Assembly: GCA_030599585.1 (NCBI GenBank)
Contig: JAUVNS010000005.1
Location: forward strand, 128,001-192,000
Reading direction: 5' to 3'
Source of the DNA: Promethearchaeota archaeon
Lineage (GTDB): Archaea > Asgardarchaeota > Lokiarchaeia > Sigyniarchaeales > SOKP01
Length of the DNA stretch: 64,000 nucleotides
A model generated the notes under the pieces. The model did not search any database, was not told where the DNA came from, and worked only from the letters and a program-made list of their open reading frames with translations. A program made the position numbers and the translations under genes. The stretch's first letter is position 1. Each line of letters starts with the position of its first letter. This document shows, piece after piece, positions 10,986 through 25,757 of the stretch.

Positions 10986-13532
10986 TTAATTTTGGAACTC
11001 AATATCTCGATGCTGCATCTCTATTAACCGCGTGTATTTCCCGTTTAATGCTAGTAATGATTCATGTGTTCCTTGTTCTATTATACCCTTTTTATCTGTG
11101 CTTAACACAATAATATTATCTGCATTTTTAATCGTTGATAATCTATGGGCGATAATAATTGTGGTTCTTCCTTTTCTGGCTTTATCTAAAGCGTCCTGGA
11201 TAAGCGTCTCGGTGTAAGGGTCTACTGATGATGTTGCCTCATCTAAAATTAAGATTTTCGGATCTGTAATTAACGCACGAGCAAAAGCGATTAATTGACG
11301 TTGTCCAATCGAAATATTTGAAGCATTTTCTTTAAGTTTGGTATTGTATTTCTTGTGCAAAGCTTCAATGAAATTATGCAAACCGAGAAATTTAGAAACG
11401 TCTATCATTTTTCTCTCTTCCTCTGGAGTAGGGTTATCGAATGCATATAATAAATTTTCTCGTATAGTTCCTGTAAAAAGATAAGCATCTTGGGGTACTA
11501 AACCTATCATGTTTCTAAGATCTTTCTTTGTGATATCACGAATATCAATCCCATCTATCAATACTTCTCCATCGTTTACATCGTAAAACCGGGAAATCAA
11601 TTTAGTTATCGTTGTCTTACCAGATCCCGTTTCTCCAACAATAGCCATGGTTTTTCCTGAAGGTATTGTTAAATCTACATTTTTTAGGACGAAACCAGTA
11701 GATTGTTCGTGTCTAATAATGATTTTTTGTTCTTCTATAGCCTCTTTAACTATTTTCGGGATTTGTTCATAAGTTTCTTCGTTGATTTTCATAGATGCTA
11801 ACATTTTTACCATAGATTGAGGCGACATTTGAGGCATACCCCCTCCCATCATTCCTGATTCTCCACCCATTCCACTAGAAGCTGGTGTTACACTTTTACT
11901 TTTCAAACTTTTTTCTAGAAATTTGCTCATTTTTAATATTGATTCAGGGGGTATTGTTGGCATAGAGGGCAATTTTTCTTGATCTTCATGTGCATCCGGT
12001 AGCGTATCGAAAGAAATTTTTAGTTTTGGATTATTTTTTGCAAATTCTGTACCTGGAACAGCATATCCAAATTCTGCAAGGATATTATCTATTAATGAAG
12101 GTGTTTTAGAGGGATCTTGACCCATAAGGCTCATAAATAACTTCTGTCTTATGTTCTGAGGCATGTTCATGGTATTTTTCATCAAGAAAGAAGAATATGG
12201 CTCTGGTAACGACTTCATAAAATCCATAGCTCTTTTTCTCATTTGCTCCATCATTGGATTATCTGAGTGCGCAACACCTGGTGTTTTGGGTGGTGTCATA
12301 GTCTTTGGACTAGTTTGAATTGGATCGGACTCACGATTAGTAATTTCTCCATTTTCCAATATATAACCAAAATTTACGGAATTAAACTTAATTTCTCCAA
12401 TTACATTTTCAATTTGTTTTGGACTCTCATTATCAGGTATTTCAACTCTCTCTTCTAATAAGGTATATATTCTATCACTCGCAGCTAAAGATGCAGTGAT
12501 TATTTCTTGAATCTGCATTAATGTCATGAATGGTCTAAAAAATTGACCCAGAATCGATATGTATGCGCTAAGCACTCCAACTGTAACCGTAATACCAAAT
12601 ATCGAGACATTTCCTAAGACTGCAAACCCTCCTGCTAATAAAATTCCTGCCGTAAGTATGGTTGTTACTAATGAAATTAATGGAAAGATCGTTGCCATAA
12701 ACTTTCTTATTTTTAACATTGCATTATAATTAGCCGTATTAGCTTCATCAAACTCTGAGGATGCTTTTTTTTCCTGTCCGTAGGCTTGAACTACTTTAGC
12801 TCCCGCAATATTTTCTTGAATTGAAGATGTAATGGTCCCAATTGTTTTTCTAGATTCCTTAAAAAGTCCCATTGCTCTCTTTCTAAATATATATATAAAA
12901 ATAAAAAATATCGGGAAAATAATTAAAGAAAGTAAAGCTAGGAACACATTGAGAAAGAACATTATGGTTACTGTAAGGGCTAAACTAACAATACTTGAAA
13001 TTATCGAAACGAATTGACCCCCAACCAATTGATTTAGCTGAGACACATCATTAGTTGTTATAGACATTATATCTCCCGAGGATCTCTTATCAAAATAACT
13101 TAATGACATATCTTGAAGCTTATAGAAAAGGTTATTTCGAATCTCGAATGTAATATTTTGTGATATTTTTCCCATTCCGTACTGTGCAAAATACGTCGTT
13201 ATAGCCATAGCTACAAGAAGCGAAAAGTAAAATGTAGTCATAACTATGATATAAACACTATCTTTGGCCACAATACCGTAGTCTATTAAATTTGCTGAAA
13301 TGATGGGAGTTATTGAAGTTATTAAAGTTCCAAGTAACAACAAAATTAAAAAGGTTACAAATTTCCATTTGTATCCTCTTAAATATGAAAACAACCATTT
13401 CCACAATTCTCGATTAGAGTGTTCTAATTTAGATTTACCACTATCCATCATAAAGCCACGATGCATACCAACCCCTGGTTGAATAATTTTCTTTTCTTCT
13501 TCTTCTTTTTTCTTCTGATTATTGTTACTCAT
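10986..13532 (-). CDS. ABC exporter TMD-NBD subunit (canonical Walker B/H-loop) with a ~220-aa insertion in the NBD; likely start ATG 13532
   Basis: multi-helix TMD, GETGSGKT, ISIGQRQL, LILDEA, AHRL; ATG 13532 follows GGAGG and overlaps the partner gene stop. Confidence 0.92.
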   Translation of the reverse strand: MSNNNQKKKEEEEKKIIQPGVGMHRGFMMDSGKSKLEHSNRELWKWLFSYLRGYKWKFVTFLILLLLGTLITSITPIISANLIDYGIVAKDSVYIIVMTTFYFSLLVAMAITTYFAQYGMGKISQNITFEIRNNLFYKLQDMSLSYFDKRSSGDIMSITTNDVSQLNQLVGGQFVSIISSIVSLALTVTIMFFLNVFLALLSLIIFPIFFIFIYIFRKRAMGLFKESRKTIGTITSSIQENIAGAKVVQAYGQEKKASSEFDEANTANYNAMLKIRKFMATIFPLISLVTTILTAGILLAGGFAVLGNVSIFGITVTVGVLSAYISILGQFFRPFMTLMQIQEIITASLAASDRIYTLLEERVEIPDNESPKQIENVIGEIKFNSVNFGYILENGEITNRESDPIQTSPKTMTPPKTPGVAHSDNPMMEQMRKRAMDFMKSLPEPYSSFLMKNTMNMPQNIRQKLFMSLMGQDPSKTPSLIDNILAEFGYAVPGTEFAKNNPKLKISFDTLPDAHEDQEKLPSMPTIPPESILKMSKFLEKSLKSKSVTPASSGMGGESGMMGGGMPQMSPQSMVKMLASMKINEETYEQIPKIVKEAIEEQKIIIRHEQSTGFVLKNVDLTIPSGKTMAIVGETGSGKTTITKLISRFYDVNDGEVLIDGIDIRDITKKDLRNMIGLVPQDAYLFTGTIRENLLYAFDNPTPEEERKMIDVSKFLGLHNFIEALHKKYNTKLKENASNISIGQRQLIAFARALITDPKILILDEATSSVDPYTETLIQDALDKARKGRTTIIIAHRLSTIKNADNIIVLSTDKKGIIEQGTHESLLALNGKYTRLIEMQHRDIEFQN

Positions 13533-15267
13533 TAATGTTTCCTCCTTTCGATTTTTGTTTTTGAAACAGAGTTTCATATATTTGCTTATATAATACATTT
13601 GATTTAATTAATTCTTCGTGATTACCGAATCCTACCACGCGACCTCGATCTAGAATTAATATCAAATCCGCATTTCGAATGGTAGATATACGCTGTGTTA
13701 TTATAATGGTTGTCGTATCTTTCATTATTTTTGTAAGGGCTTCTTGAATTTTAAATTCAGTTTCAACATCAACAGAACTTGTAGAATCATCAAAAACCAA
13801 AATCTTAGGTTTTACAATTAAGGCTCTAGCAATGGATAACCGTTGCTTTTGGCCTCCTGATAGCCGTGTCCCTCTTTCTCCTACAATTGAATCGTACCCT
13901 TTCGGTAAAGTTATGATAAACTCATGGAGTTCGGCAATTTGTGCTGCTTCAACAATTTCCTCCTCCTTAGCATCCTCCTTACCATAGGCTATATTTTCTG
14001 CTATGCTCTTATTAAAAAGATAAGTTTCTTGGGAAACTATCCCAATATTTCTTCTTAAATCTTTCAATCTATAATTTTGGATATTTATTCCATCAATTTT
14101 GATACTACCATCATTAACTTCGTAAAATCGTGGAATTAAATTTATTACTGTTGACTTACCAGAGCCAGTCGTCCCTAAAATTGCTAATTTCTTTCCCTCG
14201 GGTATTTTAAATGTAACATCCTTCAAAATTCTATGCTCAGACGTATAACCAAACGATACATTTTCAAAAACTATTTCACCTTTTACATTTTCCAGGGGGA
14301 GAGCGTCTGGAAGATCTTCAATTTCAGGAGCAGAATCAAGAATTTCTCTAACACGCGTTAAAGCAGCATCCGCTTGAACATAAAGCAGCATAATTTGTCC
14401 TAACATCATTAAAGGGAAACCTAGAACGGCTATATAGGAAATTAAAGTGATTATTGCTTCCAATGTTATTTTTCCCTCAATATACCACATTCCTCCTAAG
14501 AAAAATGTGATAATTATCATAAATCCGATAACAATATATACAAGTGGCATGTAAAGCGAGTTGTATTTTACTGAGTCAACACTCGCTTTGTAGAATCTTC
14601 GATTGTTTAGTTGGAATTTCTTGTGTTCTTTATCTTGAGTGCTAAACATTCTAACAACTTCAGCTCCTACGATATTCTCCCTAATCGTATTAGTTAACTC
14701 GCCAAAACTTTCCCGCGTTTCTATAAAAATCGGTTTTAATTTTTTAGCTATAAAGTAGGATATAGTTAAGGATACAACAAAAGCTGTTATCAAAATAAAT
14801 GAAAGTTCTAAGCTAAAAAGTAAAAAACCAACAAAAACACCTGTCATTTGAAGAATCGATTGTAATCCTAAAGTTAAACCCATCCCAAAAATCATTTGAG
14901 TTTCTTCGATGTCACTTGTAGCTCTTGATATCAACTGACCAGTTTCAGTCTTATCAAAAAATGAAAATGATTGTCGGTATATAGCATTACTAATATCTGC
15001 TCGTAAGTAATATATGGCTCTAGAAGATACTTCTGCTCCTTTAAGTCTAGCGGCTCGACTGGTAAAGTATATCAATACTGCGAACAATACAATCAGTAAA
15101 AAATTTATTAATAAATCTGGAGCATTTGTTAATGCTCCAATCATTCTCCCTATAAATATGGGAGTGAATGTGTAAAAAATCGTTGATATTAAGAGAAGTG
15201 TAAACTGATAAATGAAGTTTTTTCTCGATTTTGCCCAATATTTGAATATCATGCGAAGTGAATTCAT
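13525..15267 (-). CDS. ABC exporter TMD-NBD subunit (degenerate site) of a TM287/288-type heterodimer
   Basis: GTTGSGKS, LSGGQ, degenerate Walker B FDDS and TQR in place of AHR. Confidence 0.93.
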   Translation of the reverse strand: MNSLRMIFKYWAKSRKNFIYQFTLLLISTIFYTFTPIFIGRMIGALTNAPDLLINFLLIVLFAVLIYFTSRAARLKGAEVSSRAIYYLRADISNAIYRQSFSFFDKTETGQLISRATSDIEETQMIFGMGLTLGLQSILQMTGVFVGFLLFSLELSFILITAFVVSLTISYFIAKKLKPIFIETRESFGELTNTIRENIVGAEVVRMFSTQDKEHKKFQLNNRRFYKASVDSVKYNSLYMPLVYIVIGFMIIITFFLGGMWYIEGKITLEAIITLISYIAVLGFPLMMLGQIMLLYVQADAALTRVREILDSAPEIEDLPDALPLENVKGEIVFENVSFGYTSEHRILKDVTFKIPEGKKLAILGTTGSGKSTVINLIPRFYEVNDGSIKIDGINIQNYRLKDLRRNIGIVSQETYLFNKSIAENIAYGKEDAKEEEIVEAAQIAELHEFIITLPKGYDSIVGERGTRLSGGQKQRLSIARALIVKPKILVFDDSTSSVDVETEFKIQEALTKIMKDTTTIIITQRISTIRNADLILILDRGRVVGFGNHEELIKSNVLYKQIYETLFQKQKSKGGNINE

Positions 15268-17466: not shown

Positions 17467-18216
17467 ATGGATTTTGAATCAAAATATTTTGAAATAAGAC
17501 AATTCTTATCGATTTCTGAGCTAGATTTTAACTTGGATAAGAAGATTGATGAAATTTTTGATTCAGATAGTCTTAAGATGGAAATATTAAGTAATATTAC
17601 CCAATTTATCTATTATTTTTCACTTTTTAAGAATGTAAAACCTTTTATGAATTCCGTTTACTACTGCATTGAAACTACTTTAGAAATTCGGGTTGAATCT
17701 GTAAGCGATTTTAAAGAGCTACTAGTAAAAAATGCATTGATGAGATTTGTTCAAGAATATATAGATTACTCACAATTAACACAAAAAAGACAAGTAATGA
17801 AGTTTTTATCCGATTCATTTGAGAAACTTCAAATTCAGCCTATTATTATTAATTTAGGGTTACTTCTTAAACCTATGTATCAGGATAAGGCTTATCTTGA
17901 TAGAGCACTCAAGACTAAGGAAGAAAAAATCAATTATTCCCTTCTTACTGAAAATGAAAATGAAATTGAAATTAAGACCATAATTGACGAATGGTTAAAG
18001 GTTCAAGTTATTACATTAAACAATCAAGACGAGATTAAAACAGAATTAGGAAAAAAATATGAAGATTTAATGATTAATTTTAAAATTATTAAAAGCTCTG
18101 AGATTTACAAAAAACTTTTCAAGGAAATAATGGAAATGCTCTCATTGAGACTTACTCTTATTAGTTTAACGGAATCAATATCAGACGATTCATTTGAACC
18201 TATTCCAATTAAATAA
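17467..18216 (+). CDS. hypothetical helical protein
   Basis: 249-aa ORF filling the gap; no recognisable motif. Confidence 0.65.
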   Translation: MDFESKYFEIRQFLSISELDFNLDKKIDEIFDSDSLKMEILSNITQFIYYFSLFKNVKPFMNSVYYCIETTLEIRVESVSDFKELLVKNALMRFVQEYIDYSQLTQKRQVMKFLSDSFEKLQIQPIIINLGLLLKPMYQDKAYLDRALKTKEEKINYSLLTENENEIEIKTIIDEWLKVQVITLNNQDEIKTELGKKYEDLMINFKIIKSSEIYKKLFKEIMEMLSLRLTLISLTESISDDSFEPIPIK

Positions 18217-18385: not shown

Positions 18386-19867
18386 GTGAGAAAATTGGAA
18401 GAAAACGATAAACCTTTATCCACCGAAGAAATAGAGAAGCAAAAAAAGATAGTTGATGACCTATATAGAAAAGAAAAAGAAGATAGAGAAAGTTACTTCA
18501 AGAGCTTTGAGGAAGAACGAAAAACTGCTTTTGAAGAGAGTAAAGATCTTATATCCTCATTAATCTCAAAGAAGAGCTTCATGAGAGAAAAACAAAGAGA
18601 AAAAGATATAATAAGAATGGAGATTAAACCTGAAATCGAAAAAACTGGCGAAGCGATTGAAAAATCCATAAGTGAAAAAGCTTTTATGAGAGAGAAACAC
18701 AGAGAAGAAGATCATATAAGGATCGATCTAAAACCTGATATTAGAGGGGTAGGTGAAGCAATAAGTAAAACTGTTGACGACAAGGCTTTCTTAATTGAAA
18801 AAAGGAGAGAATCTGATGAACACAGAATGAAGATCAAACCTAACTTCGAGCAAACAGGAGAGGTAATAAGTAAAAATATTGATGAAAAAGCTTTTTTAAT
18901 AGAAAAAAAGAAAGAGAGCGATTCGGTATTGCTAGATTTAAAACCAGACATGCAAACTGCTAGCAACGCAATTAGTAAATCAATAGGAGAGAAGGCTTTT
19001 TTAAGAGAAAAACAAAGAGAAAGCGATCTGAGTAGAATGCATATCAAACCAGACTTTATGAAAACGGGTGAAGCGATAAGTAAAACAATAGCCGAAAAAG
19101 CTTTTAGAATTGAGAAAAAAAAAGAGACCCAGCACAAAAAAATGGAACTACATCCAGATATTGAAGGTAAAGGAGAGGCAATAAAGGAATCTATTAACGA
19201 AAAAGCATTTAGGATTGATATGCAAAAGGATAGAGAAAGAAAAATAAAAGAGTTAAATCCAGATATTAGCAAAGCTGGAGAATCCATTGCCCAATCTATT
19301 GGAACAAAGGCCTTTTTACGCGAAACGCGCAGAGAAAAGGATCATGAGAGAATAGATTTGAAACCAGATTTTATGAAAACTGGAGACGCAATTAGCGCTA
19401 CAGTAGCTGAAAAAGCCTTTAGAATGGAAAAAAGTCGCGAAATTGACGAAAAAAAACATGACCTAAAACCTGATATAAAAAAAACTGCAGAATTAATTAG
19501 CAAATCTATACAAGAAAAAGCGTTTTTACGAGAAAAACACAGAGCCGAGGATTCTAAACGTATGGAAATAAAACCAGACATAACAAAAGCAAGTCAAGCC
19601 ATTAAATCTTCAATTGACGAAAAGGCTTTTAGAATTGAGAAGCAAAAAGAGATGGACCATAAAAGAATGGAATTAAAACCGGACTTTGAGAAATCCAGTG
19701 ACGCTATTCAAAAAACAATAGGGGAAAAAGCATTTATTATCGAAAAACAAAAAACTCGCGATTCTGAACTAATAGAGCTTAAACCAGATATTAAAGGTAT
19801 CAGTTCTTTAATCGAAGGAAAAATTGAAAAAATTGAACAGAAGAAAAAGGACGAGAATACTACATAA
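18386..19867 (+). CDS. 35-aa tandem-repeat charged helical protein (nebulin-like period and motif)
   Basis: 12 gap-free 35-aa units plus a partial unit; consensus KPD(I/F)xxxGEAISKSIxEKAFxxEKxRExDxxRM(E/D)(L/I). Confidence 0.85.
   Translation: MRKLEENDKPLSTEEIEKQKKIVDDLYRKEKEDRESYFKSFEEERKTAFEESKDLISSLISKKSFMREKQREKDIIRMEIKPEIEKTGEAIEKSISEKAFMREKHREEDHIRIDLKPDIRGVGEAISKTVDDKAFLIEKRRESDEHRMKIKPNFEQTGEVISKNIDEKAFLIEKKKESDSVLLDLKPDMQTASNAISKSIGEKAFLREKQRESDLSRMHIKPDFMKTGEAISKTIAEKAFRIEKKKETQHKKMELHPDIEGKGEAIKESINEKAFRIDMQKDRERKIKELNPDISKAGESIAQSIGTKAFLRETRREKDHERIDLKPDFMKTGDAISATVAEKAFRMEKSREIDEKKHDLKPDIKKTAELISKSIQEKAFLREKHRAEDSKRMEIKPDITKASQAIKSSIDEKAFRIEKQKEMDHKRMELKPDFEKSSDAIQKTIGEKAFIIEKQKTRDSELIELKPDIKGISSLIEGKIEKIEQKKKDENTT
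18521..19780 (+). repeat. 12 x 105-bp degenerate coding tandem repeat
   Basis: recurring aaacc(t/a)ga and gaaaaagc(t/a/c)ttt at 105-nt spacing. Confidence 0.9.
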
Positions 19868-19898: not shown

Positions 19899-20402
19899 CT
19901 ATAAATGGACATCAAATTTGAATAAAGTATTTAAATTCATATTTTCTAATCTTTTTTTATATTGTAGAATTGAAGGATCTACATTTCCATTAAAATTCCT
20001 TATTGCAGACTCGAATCTATAGTAAAAATCTTCCATAATTTGATGTAAAATTACTCTCTCTACTTGTAAATTGGTTTTCTTCGAAATCGCAATCACTGAC
20101 AATCGCCCTCTCCTTTCGTATAAAATTCTACTCTCCTTAAAATTCACTTCTTGAATCTCGTCGTTCACTGATTCAGGTTTAATCTCGCTAATAAAAAGAT
20201 TAAGCGCATTAAGAAAACCACTTATCAAATCTTCATGAGACGAAAATCTAGAGTTGTGCGTATATTTTTTGCTAAGCAGTAAAGAACCCGATACATTGTC
20301 TAAGAAGTAAATTGCGTGAAAACGATTAACATCTAAATTAATCTTTTCTAAATTAAATCCATACGACTTCTCTATATTTTTATTAATCCATCTATTCGAC
20401 AT
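19899..20402 (-). CDS. longin-like domain protein
   Basis: AIYFLD..SG.LL..K.Y...DLISGFLNAL..F..EI....IQEVNF...ILYE.....VIAI pattern typical of Asgard longin-like proteins. Confidence 0.65.
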   Translation of the reverse strand: MSNRWINKNIEKSYGFNLEKINLDVNRFHAIYFLDNVSGSLLLSKKYTHNSRFSSHEDLISGFLNALNLFISEIKPESVNDEIQEVNFKESRILYERRGRLSVIAISKKTNLQVERVILHQIMEDFYYRFESAIRNFNGNVDPSILQYKKRLENMNLNTLFKFDVHL

Positions 20403-20655
20403 CTTTCGACTGCTTTCTAACCTAAAACTATTCCTATTAAAAAATGAAAACGATTACGATTTAAAATGTAAATATTATCTTAGTGACATATAAATAGTTT
20501 TTTTAGCTAGTTGAAGCTTAATCCAATTAATATTGCGCTTAACTGGGTAGTTTGAGTTAAAATGATAGAAAAACTTTTCAAGAAAAACCTAAAAATTTAA
20601 AATAAAATCATTTTATTATTAGACATATACTATTCTTATCACATTTTAATTTTTG

Positions 20656-21129
20656 ATGAATATGGGTCTAAATAACAACCACGGAAAACAAAAAAATAAA
20701 ATTTCTATTGGTAAAATCCTATCAAGAGAGGATTTTAATTCCACTATTTTTCCAGAGGAGGTTAAAGCGGAAATCAACCAGACTCCTTATTACTTGCTAA
20801 TTTTCATTTCTCGCGAAGATTCAATAAAAATTAGCTGCTTTCCTACTAATACGAATGAGATAAAAAAAATTCTCATTAAGTTAATTGAGTTCTCGCCCGA
20901 TCTAGTGAAGGGAATATCGACCGTACTTAACGATCTTGGTTTAAGTAAAGATATTCTGCATACTACCGGAATTTGTTATGAGTTGGAAACTTGCTTCTAT
21001 GAAACCTATCTATTAGGAGACACTCTAAAATCGAAGAAAATGTCTATGGACCTTATAAAAGAAAAATTCCTCGCAATTGAGAAAATTGTTAATGTCTCAA
21101 TAGAAGATATTCCAATTCATAACGAATAG
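20656..21129 (+). CDS. hypothetical protein (possible ACT-like C-terminal half, HTTGIC...CFYE motif)
   Basis: ~157-aa ORF; the fold guess is weak. Confidence 0.6.
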   Translation: MNMGLNNNHGKQKNKISIGKILSREDFNSTIFPEEVKAEINQTPYYLLIFISREDSIKISCFPTNTNEIKKILIKLIEFSPDLVKGISTVLNDLGLSKDILHTTGICYELETCFYETYLLGDTLKSKKMSMDLIKEKFLAIEKIVNVSIEDIPIHNE

Positions 21130-22662: not shown

Positions 22663-24372
22663 TTGAAACTTATGACAGAAGATATTATAAGACGGACAAC
22701 GAGTATTTGCCCAGAATGCTTACAACCCATTCCAGCGGAGATCTATGTTGATCCAGAAACTAATTGGGTCATGATGAGAAAAGATTGCAAGGAACACGGG
22801 CATTTTAAAGACAAACTTTCCATCGATCCAGATGAATACAAATGGGGCGAAACTTTCACTGACGACATAGGATCTACAGTCGATAACTCTACTAAACCTG
22901 AATATGTTAGTTCAGGTTTAAAGGAGTGTGTTGAAGGCTGTCCATACGATTGTGGCCTCTGTGAAAATCATAAAAGCGCACCTAATATATGCCTAATCGA
23001 TATTACAAATCGCTGTAACTTAACCTGCCCAATTTGTTTTGCTAACGCAAGCGCGAAAGGGTATGTTGTAGAACCTACGCTCGAACAAGTCTTCCAAATA
23101 ATGGAACATTTCAGGTCAATGAAACCTGTTCCAGCAGTTATGCTCCAAATATCTGGGGGAGAACCTACGATCAGAGATGATCTTCCAGACATCATCCGGG
23201 AAGGAAAAAGACTCGGTTTCTCTGAAGTAATGGTTACAACTAACGGTATAAGGTTCGCCAAATCGATTGACTTTTTAACGAAGTGCAAAGACGCGGGAAT
23301 GGATGCCATCTATTTACAATTTGATGCAACTGACGATCCTGAAGCTTGGAAAAAGGTTCGTGGCGTTAATTTATGGCCGTTAAAGAAACGTGTTATTGAA
23401 AACTGTCGCAAAATTGGATATTTTGGTTTAATGCTAGTTCCTGTTATAGCCAAAGGAGTTAACGACCACGAAGTCGGAAACATTTTAGACTTTGCTAAGA
23501 ATAATAGCGACGTGGTTTCTGGAGTAATTTTCCAGCCAGTCTCACTTTGTGGACGGATCAGTTTTGAAGAACTGATGGATTTAAGATATACAACCTCAGA
23601 CCTCAAAGTAGCAATAAATAAACACACAAACAATGCTATTGAAAAATTCTATCCTATCGCAACTACAGCAAAAATGACCCGTTTATTAGCTTGGTTTGAT
23701 AACATGCCCGAATTTGGTATGACGAGCCATAAAGATTGTGGGTTTGCCACAATACTCATCGTTAACGATAAAGACGAATGGGAATCCCTCGATGATTATT
23801 TTGACGCAGAAGGACTTATTAAGTGGTCAAACAAGGTTTATGACATGGTTCAAGGAAAAGAAGTCCCAAAACCAACTGGGTTCTTAAAAGGTATAAACTT
23901 GCAAGATTTCGGGGCTGTAGCTAGTACTGTAGGGAAATTCATAGACGAAATGACTGATTTAGGATATCGGCAAATGATGAAAGCTTATTATTTTGCTGGA
24001 GGAATTAAGTTCGTAAAACATCCAGAAAAAATCTTAACGAGTAAAACCTACCAGAGTTTTGCACGAGTTATCGCTTCCCCGAACTTAGCAAGCGCCGCGA
24101 ACTTCCTTCATAACAAGAATCTAATGATCTCAGCTATGCACTTTCAAGATGCCTACAACTTCGATTTGGACAGAGTTTGTAGATGTTTAGTCCATTATGG
24201 TGTAGTAGATCCAGAAGACAACACAAAAACATTGGAGATACCATTTTGTGCTATGAATACACTACACAGGGAAAGAATTGAACTTGCAAACGCCATTAAA
24301 GGCGAGGAAGCTAAAAAAGCCGAAGTTATTCAAGCAGAAATTAAAGAGCTTTTAGAAACCGTAAAACAATAA
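22663..24372 (+). CDS. tes: tetraether lipid synthase (Tes/GDGT-MAS, MJ0619-like radical SAM); ATG 22672 is an alternative start
   Basis: N-terminal CPEC..CKEH and CPYDCGLC..H, ITNRCNLTCPICF, SGGEP, C-terminal HKDCG, MHFQDAYNFD..R..RC.VHY and IPFC. Confidence 0.88.
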   Translation: MKLMTEDIIRRTTSICPECLQPIPAEIYVDPETNWVMMRKDCKEHGHFKDKLSIDPDEYKWGETFTDDIGSTVDNSTKPEYVSSGLKECVEGCPYDCGLCENHKSAPNICLIDITNRCNLTCPICFANASAKGYVVEPTLEQVFQIMEHFRSMKPVPAVMLQISGGEPTIRDDLPDIIREGKRLGFSEVMVTTNGIRFAKSIDFLTKCKDAGMDAIYLQFDATDDPEAWKKVRGVNLWPLKKRVIENCRKIGYFGLMLVPVIAKGVNDHEVGNILDFAKNNSDVVSGVIFQPVSLCGRISFEELMDLRYTTSDLKVAINKHTNNAIEKFYPIATTAKMTRLLAWFDNMPEFGMTSHKDCGFATILIVNDKDEWESLDDYFDAEGLIKWSNKVYDMVQGKEVPKPTGFLKGINLQDFGAVASTVGKFIDEMTDLGYRQMMKAYYFAGGIKFVKHPEKILTSKTYQSFARVIASPNLASAANFLHNKNLMISAMHFQDAYNFDLDRVCRCLVHYGVVDPEDNTKTLEIPFCAMNTLHRERIELANAIKGEEAKKAEVIQAEIKELLETVKQ

Positions 24373-25193: not shown

Positions 25194-25757
25194 TTGCCAG
25201 CAGAAGGACTTTCCACCGAAGCTAAGGAATATGTATTCAAGATAACAATTCTTGGACAAAGTGCCGTTGGTAAAACTTCATTAATTAATCAATTTGTGGA
25301 GGGCTCGTTTCAGGAAGATTATAAACCAACACTCGGCGCAAATATAATCCGAAAAGATGTTAATATAGGAGAGGTCAACGCTAAAGTTCGATTAATTATG
25401 TGGGACTTAGCGGGTCAAGAGAAATACAATGTGATACGAAGTATGTATTTTCAAGGATGTGTTGGGAGTCTACTCGTGTATGATGTCACTCGTCACGAGA
25501 GTTTTGCTGCGATTGAATCTAAATGGCTTAAAGATTTCAAAAACTACGTGAAAAAAGAGGGCGCTTACATTTTAATCGGCAATAAAGTCGATCTAGACGA
25601 CGAACGAGTCGTCAGTAAAGAAGAGGGTGAAAAATTAGCTAAACAAATCGGTGCAAGTGTTTTTGTTGAAACCAGCGCTAGATTGGGAAAAAATGTAGAA
25701 GAAGCCTTCAAAAGTCTAGTATACCAAATTTTACGAAATTATGGAGAAAAAATATAA
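25194..25757 (+). CDS. Rab-like small GTPase
   Basis: G1 GQSAVGKT, G2 YKPTLG, G3 WDLAGQE, G4 NKVD, G5 ETSA; no C-terminal prenylation Cys. Confidence 0.95.
   Translation: MPAEGLSTEAKEYVFKITILGQSAVGKTSLINQFVEGSFQEDYKPTLGANIIRKDVNIGEVNAKVRLIMWDLAGQEKYNVIRSMYFQGCVGSLLVYDVTRHESFAAIESKWLKDFKNYVKKEGAYILIGNKVDLDDERVVSKEEGEKLAKQIGASVFVETSARLGKNVEEAFKSLVYQILRNYGEKI

Follow-up and report, generated by a model that had tools for sequence, protein, structure and literature searches.

The window (the whole 64,000-nucleotide stretch of DNA that was analyzed) encodes a repeat protein whose head is, as judged by sequence, homologous to Asgard mini-proteins of 59 to 77 aa, and whose array of 35-aa units seems to have arisen when 39 aa of such a mini-protein were amplified in tandem. 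The protein belongs to a real, undescribed Asgard repeat family without a name in Pfam, NCBIfam, PHROGs, or the PDB, and its single-module relatives are a new finding. Homology to nebulin, suggested by the first-pass annotation, is largely refuted by sequence comparison, and the likeness to nebulin seems to have come about as a side effect of duplication and not through ancestry. The repeat protein is probably, though with considerable reserve on our part, an Asgard-native soluble protein that serves as a multivalent helical binder or scaffold for a putative repeated partner.

Translation probably starts at the TTG rather than at the GTG of the longest reading (Table 1), because homologs have a Met at that position.

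Table 1. Repeat gene, its parts, and other genes of the window
Feature	Positions	Strand	Remarks
Whole repeat gene	18395-19867	+	Probable start TTG 18395; 490 aa
Longest reading of the repeat ORF	18386-19867	+	First possible start GTG 18386; 493 aa (493 codons)
Head	18395-18577	+	One long charged helix (model); aa 4-64 of the 493-aa reading
Twelve gap-free 35-aa units	18521-19780	+	aa 46-465
Terminal partial unit	19781-19867	+	28 aa, without K-A-F core, then stop
Upstream neighbor	17467-18216	+	249 aa; no known family; syntenic; kept where the repeat gene is missing
Downstream neighbor	19899-20402	-	167 aa; convergent; syntenic; conserved across the family; kept where the repeat gene is missing
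Conserved gene	20653-21129	+	158 aa
Radical-SAM protein	22663-24372	+	HMPTM zinc ribbon
Small GTPase	25194-25757	+	Rab/Ras family (PF00071, E 2.6e-51)
ABC transporter	10986-13598	-	ATPase domain with insertion

Differences between the repeat gene and its close homologs fall mostly at third codon positions (e.g., 87/55/233 by codon position), which identifies it as a coding gene under constraint. An antisense ORF at 18712-19287 was rejected as a gene and is a shadow of the repeat. In one RNA run, short contigs cover parts of the repeat gene and of its neighbors alike and are therefore not taken as expression of the repeat gene, and a promoter scan at the gene gave a result at chance level. The genome contains one copy of the gene, and no second protein with the core motif was found there. 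Three other proteins of the same genome (G000 C24:81329-83119, C35:11565-12383, and C23:75710-77203) have a periodicity of 35 to 40 aa, and the profile shows no relation between them and the 35-aa unit.

The first-pass description of 12 units of exactly 35 aa without indels holds: K[AS]F occurs 12 times at 35-aa spacing over aa 46 to 465, and the Pro described as the start of the unit occupies position 2 in 11 of the 12 units and in the partial unit. Self-identity at lag 35 is 0.42, and pairs of units have 7 to 24 of 35 residues in common. The N-terminal segment KP...VDDLYRKE is related to the units, as proposed, but in another register, beginning at the Leu of DDLY and not at KP. Across the Lokiarchaeia family of the window (f1), 460 of 473 unit spacings are 35. 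Positions 16 to 20 of the unit are [GSAD]-E-K-A-F, and Ile11 (99%), Lys18 (99%), and Phe20 (96%) are nearly invariant among 485 distinct units. The first half-unit is amphipathic (moment 0.49), with small residues beside Ile11 and Ile15, and the second half is charged (moment 0.21); Phe20 is on the other side of the helix from the Ile stripe, and basic residues occupy positions 18, 24, 26, and 32. Net charge is near zero, and the sequence gives no sign of a transmembrane segment or signal peptide, in agreement with the earlier reading. Recent block duplications of three units are visible; identity between units is 0.60 at a lag of three units and 0.52 at seven, with no sign of the seven-unit super-repeat that is limited to nebulin and N-RAP.

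In AlphaFold2 models, each unit is a single helix of about 31 residues, broken at a short Pro linker. The head is modeled at a pLDDT of 84 to 91 over most of its length, and the head plus the first unit as a 68-residue helix (pLDDT 80 to 91). No confident tertiary fold of the repeat protein emerges from the models: pTM is 0.23 in the four-unit model and 0.20 in the full-length one, low values that alone are no proof of a missing fold. Among 457 unit doublets, covariation is mostly found at short helical separations (1 to 4, 7, and 8) and at 35, and no long-range or hairpin covariation was found among these doublets; with shallow alignments, real folds too can show low pTM and absent covariation. 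The modeled unit is at odds with a PPR-like solenoid and also with a regular five-heptad coiled coil. In line with the first reading, the predictions contain no solenoid that stands on its own and no clean coiled coil. A Foldseek search of the PDB with the repeat model gave no match, VIA-align returned generic long helices only (Z up to 6.3), and the ESM Atlas yielded features without a usable match and a structure search with TM under 0.5. Sequence matches in the PDB were designed coiled coils or noise, a word-indexed search with the single repeat protein found no matches, and those in Pfam, NCBIfam, and PHROG were spurious. A literature search, which was not exhaustive, found no description of an Asgard nebulin or of an Asgard 35-residue repeat, consistent with the earlier remark that no Asgard nebulin-like protein had been described.

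The array occurs in 109 of the 134 genomes of family f1, where it is syntenic and has the same neighbors, and all of its carriers are Asgards. Complete f1 genes contain 6 to 13 units, most often 12, 10, or 9, so the protein is not a fixed-length ruler for some 12 to 13 protomers, as had been proposed. Periods in other Loki families are 37 (G030), 37 followed by 39 to 41 (f4), and 32 (P0025). Genera g17 and g23 have no repeat gene at the locus, and the flanking genes lie next to each other there, with 77 and about 90 bp between them. The repeat gene was also not found in two single-contig genomes of 4.4 and 6.0 Mb, both of which have Lokiactin, or in most Asgards searched. The host of the window is an Asgard with actin, as assumed in the first-pass annotation: it is a member of the Lokiarchaeia, and Lokiactin was found in its genome together with three more actin-family and two FtsZ/tubulin-family genes. 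A second Lokiactin-like copy (about 82% identical; L129, L130, and L131) is present in several repeat-less g23 genomes and in the repeat-bearing genome G134.

A profile built only from Loki sequences (head plus first two units) was searched against 239 non-Loki Asgard genomes. All 11 genomes of two non-Loki families, Freyarchaeia and a second Asgard family, had exactly one matching locus each (E 1e-7 to 3e-11), and the profile gave almost no other matches among the 239 genomes. The matched loci encode stand-alone proteins of 65 to 77 aa that align without gaps with the head of the repeat protein over about 55 residues and score 40 to 45 bits; shuffled copies reached 12 bits at most and reversed ones 4. 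Weaker relatives are a 63-aa protein in two Atabeyarchaeia genomes and a 59-aa protein in one other Loki-class genome. The reciprocal, mini-only profile scored Loki heads at 43, 34, and 13 bits versus shuffle maxima of 8 to 12 and aligned the later f4 units to mini-protein positions 21 to 62. Mini-proteins and the Loki head have an invariant Arg and Lys (Arg45 and Lys63 of the head) and the E-K-A end in common. Unlike the array, the mini-proteins consist of one module, have no Phe after E-K-A and no internal Pro linker, and lie among other gene neighbors. No Pfam family was found for them; one, in a 3,576,204-bp Freyarchaeia genome, is L135:1498-1695, and P0058 is annotated “hypothetical protein.” The L135 locus and three others (L132:1477-1704, L177:7088-7276, and L180:1495-1674) encode charged, helical proteins of 59 to 77 aa with a P-P-S/T-x-E-Q/E start. 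A resemblance of the mini-protein to ATPase stalk subunits (V/A-ATPase subunit G/H or ATP synthase subunit b) was not supported: with a threshold of E 5, neither PF03179 nor PF16999 matched any mini or repeat locus, and scores for subunit b were weak (E 0.019 or worse). In family f20, the mini-protein gene lies upstream of co-oriented unknown genes (L144:1874-5428 on the minus strand and neighbors), a run whose last member encodes a 1185-aa protein that resembles glutamate-cysteine ligase and has Ig-like domains.

In the mini-protein, the Leu of L-Q-E-E-K-K-K-E and the end of E-K-A bound a span of 39 aa that matches the f4 period of 39 to 41 and to which the mini-only profile aligns the later f4 units, and the 39-aa segment Leu26-Ser64 of the head is apparently the amplified piece. 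Within one Loki order, this stretch would have been duplicated head to tail and then trimmed, giving units of 39 to 41, 37, 35, or 32 aa and arrays of 3 to 13 units. The Phe of K-A-F would then be the first residue of the next copy, and S-E-x-x-F would lie on the duplication junction; the junction register has domain scores of 2 to 13 bits, with p values of 0.007 to 0.48 by group in an 8-residue test and no significance in a 14-residue test. From the distribution, rather than from a rooted tree, we infer that the direction was from single module to array. A copying of the second half of the unit from the very start of the mini-protein was also considered and dropped, its test not being significant. 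The birth of the repeat protein from a 60-residue gene may be traced through forms that are all extant (single-module and 32-, 35-, 37-, and 39- to 41-aa units).

Nebulin and nebulette repeats are about 35 aa long, one for each F-actin subunit, with a PE-type start and SDxxYK about 13 residues further on. The first-pass annotation was right to see a nebulin-like design, as period, Pro N-cap, and helix-linker layout all resemble nebulin. Like the nebulin simple repeat (PF00880; nebulin, nebulette, N-RAP, and LASP), the Asgard array has gap-free units of about 35 aa with a Pro-capped helix and a short loop, a mid-unit small residue followed by an acid, two residues, and an aromatic, and no predicted autonomous fold. 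Descent from a common ancestor with the nebulin/LASP repeat is nevertheless extremely improbable on sequence grounds. The Pro-acidic start lies 14 residues before S/G, versus 13 in nebulin (by eye), and 38 of the 485 distinct units contain the relaxed motif [ST][DE]xx[FY][KR], both of which would suit such descent, but SDxxYK itself occurs in 0 of 485. PF00880 had no match in the window's own genome at E up to 10 and none inside any repeat gene of 135 genomes at E up to 1, and it was absent from the best 25 Pfam matches of 33 homologs. A four-unit profile searched against 1.84 billion representatives brought up 40 proteins of at most 759 aa, and the 21 examined were family fragments, except for one TPR false positive, with no nebulin among them. 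The single-module relatives lack the Phe and the 37-aa forms lack the Pro; the position of the Phe on the putative duplication junction and the missing Pro argue against common ancestry with nebulin. A tempting but false “eukaryotic signature protein” is thereby removed.

The two kinds of unit also differ in detail. WH2 and beta-thymosin repeats, for comparison, consist of a short amphipathic helix followed by LKKT/V; this motif is not in the Asgard unit profile, and no Pfam match to these repeats was found. Nebulin repeats are 31 to 38 aa long, their helix starts at Pro5 and kinks at the Ser of SDxxYK, and actin is contacted by D3, K11, S18, D19, Y22, K23, and K30 (10.1101/2021.10.06.463400). 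In a register set by eye and anchored on S and Y, the sites of nebulin's D3, K11, K23, and K30 are occupied here by K/H, E, R/L/M, and, at the last of them, no conserved residue, and the invariant Ile11, Lys18, and Ala19 of the Asgard unit are not among nebulin's reported contacts. Units of 35 (rarely 32) and 37 aa fall inside nebulin's range and the later f4 units of 39 to 41 aa outside it. The helix is continuous in the models, and G/S/A/D at position 16 together with a rotated hydrophobic face would allow a kink. The Asgard protein, unlike nebulin, has no LIM, SH3, or super-repeat, derives apparently from a mini-protein, and has a period that ranges from 32 to 41.

The existence of a repeated partner, deduced in the first-pass annotation from the strict spacing, is in keeping with the near-invariant surface residues. 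A docking patch seems most likely, since the invariant residues have no visible internal contacts and are repeated 6 to 13 times in arrays whose unit number is free to vary; part of the invariance could come from homogenization of units and not from a binding surface. Each unit would be a single helix not packed on its neighbors, and its Ile11/Ile15/Lys18/Phe20 patch would dock on one copy of the partner, which may be polymeric, homo-oligomeric, or a further molecule of the repeat protein itself. The array would raise avidity and cross-link or stabilize the partner assembly, the ancient head helix may anchor that assembly, and the protein would be an accessory, losable factor. GvpC-type cements are charged amphipathic helical repeats of 32 to 40 aa with variable copy number and a dispensable accessory role. 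The Asgard array is alike in repeat design to these and similar periodic-polymer cements, with no Pfam match to them; the gvpA profile PF00741 had no match in the window's own genome, and controls gave no match either. As the 65-aa single-module form is easily made, a partner should be findable cheaply.

It is unlikely that the protein acts without a protein partner and that its first half-units instead bundle with one another or coat membranes or granules in the manner of LEA proteins, apolipoproteins, or GvpC. Such self-assembly or coating would suit the amphipathic first half-unit with its small residues by Ile11 and Ile15, the near-zero net charge, and the free copy number, but it would bury the invariant Lys18 in the putative core, with Phe20 facing the other way, and neither an 11-mer periodicity (by inspection) nor a long-range covariation pattern is seen. 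PPR units are 35-aa two-helix hairpins stacked into a solenoid, and the Asgard array has the same period and could present its basic residues at positions 18, 24, 26, and 32 to nucleic acid. An autonomous solenoid of this type, in which each unit would recognize one base of RNA or DNA, is very unlikely, as the Asgard unit is one helix and not a hairpin, no PPR or TPR Pfam match was obtained, and hairpin covariation and hypervariable code positions were not found.

The multivalent binder preferred here could have Lokiactin as its partner, with one unit per protomer in the groove of the filament and 6 to 13 protomers stabilized. That Lokiarchaeia independently invented such a nebulin-like F-actin side-binder, from a 39-aa piece trimmed to 35, seems to us quite unlikely. 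The dominant period of 35 lies within the 31 to 38 of nebulin, whose helices likewise start at Pro and carry the motif at the kink; [GSAD]-E-K-A-F is spaced like S-D-x-x-Y, and the array is carried by Asgards only. Lokiactin filaments rise 27.9 A per subunit (PMC9834061), and the 55.8-A long-pitch rise (2 x 27.9 A) would be within reach of a helix of 31 residues with its linker, but a length near this is common to all helices of 35 residues. The period was earlier thought to be tied to actin, yet it varies from 32 to 41 aa across lineages in which Lokiactin, where recovered, is 88 to 99% identical. Also against this special case, nebulin's D3, K11, K23, and K30 positions are not kept, and actin K68, which takes nebulin's Tyr, is Met in 25 of 25 Lokiactins aligned. 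No Lokiactin column separates carriers from non-carriers of the array, and no actin gene was found near the repeat gene. Co-occurrence with Lokiactin, proposed earlier as a check, is not borne out, as the array was not found in g17 and g23 (Lokiactin 97 to 99% identical), in the 4.4- and 6.0-Mb single-contig genomes, all of which have Lokiactin, or in most Asgards searched. If Lokiactin were the partner, the protein would be an Asgard filament side-binder without precedent in the literature searched and a clean convergence on nebulin's design, and its single-module relative would be an Asgard actin-binding peptide of ancient origin and so far undescribed.

Neighbors of repeat genes differ between lineages, and synteny names no partner. 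The 249-aa upstream gene is probably not an obligate partner of the repeat protein, because it is kept when the repeat gene is missing, and the product of the 167-aa downstream gene is longin-like by eye only, with no Pfam or PDB match. The 249- and 158-aa genes are conserved unknowns, syntenic in most family members examined. The radical-SAM protein, which we take to be MJ0619- or tetraether-synthase-like, has a further paralog at C40 of the same genome; the radical-SAM gene near the Freyarchaeia mini-protein was rejected as evidence of synteny, being another paralog than that of the window. The window also encodes the Rab/Ras-family GTPase and an ABC transporter with a long Met/Pro-rich insertion, some 200 aa in length, that splits its ATPase domain.
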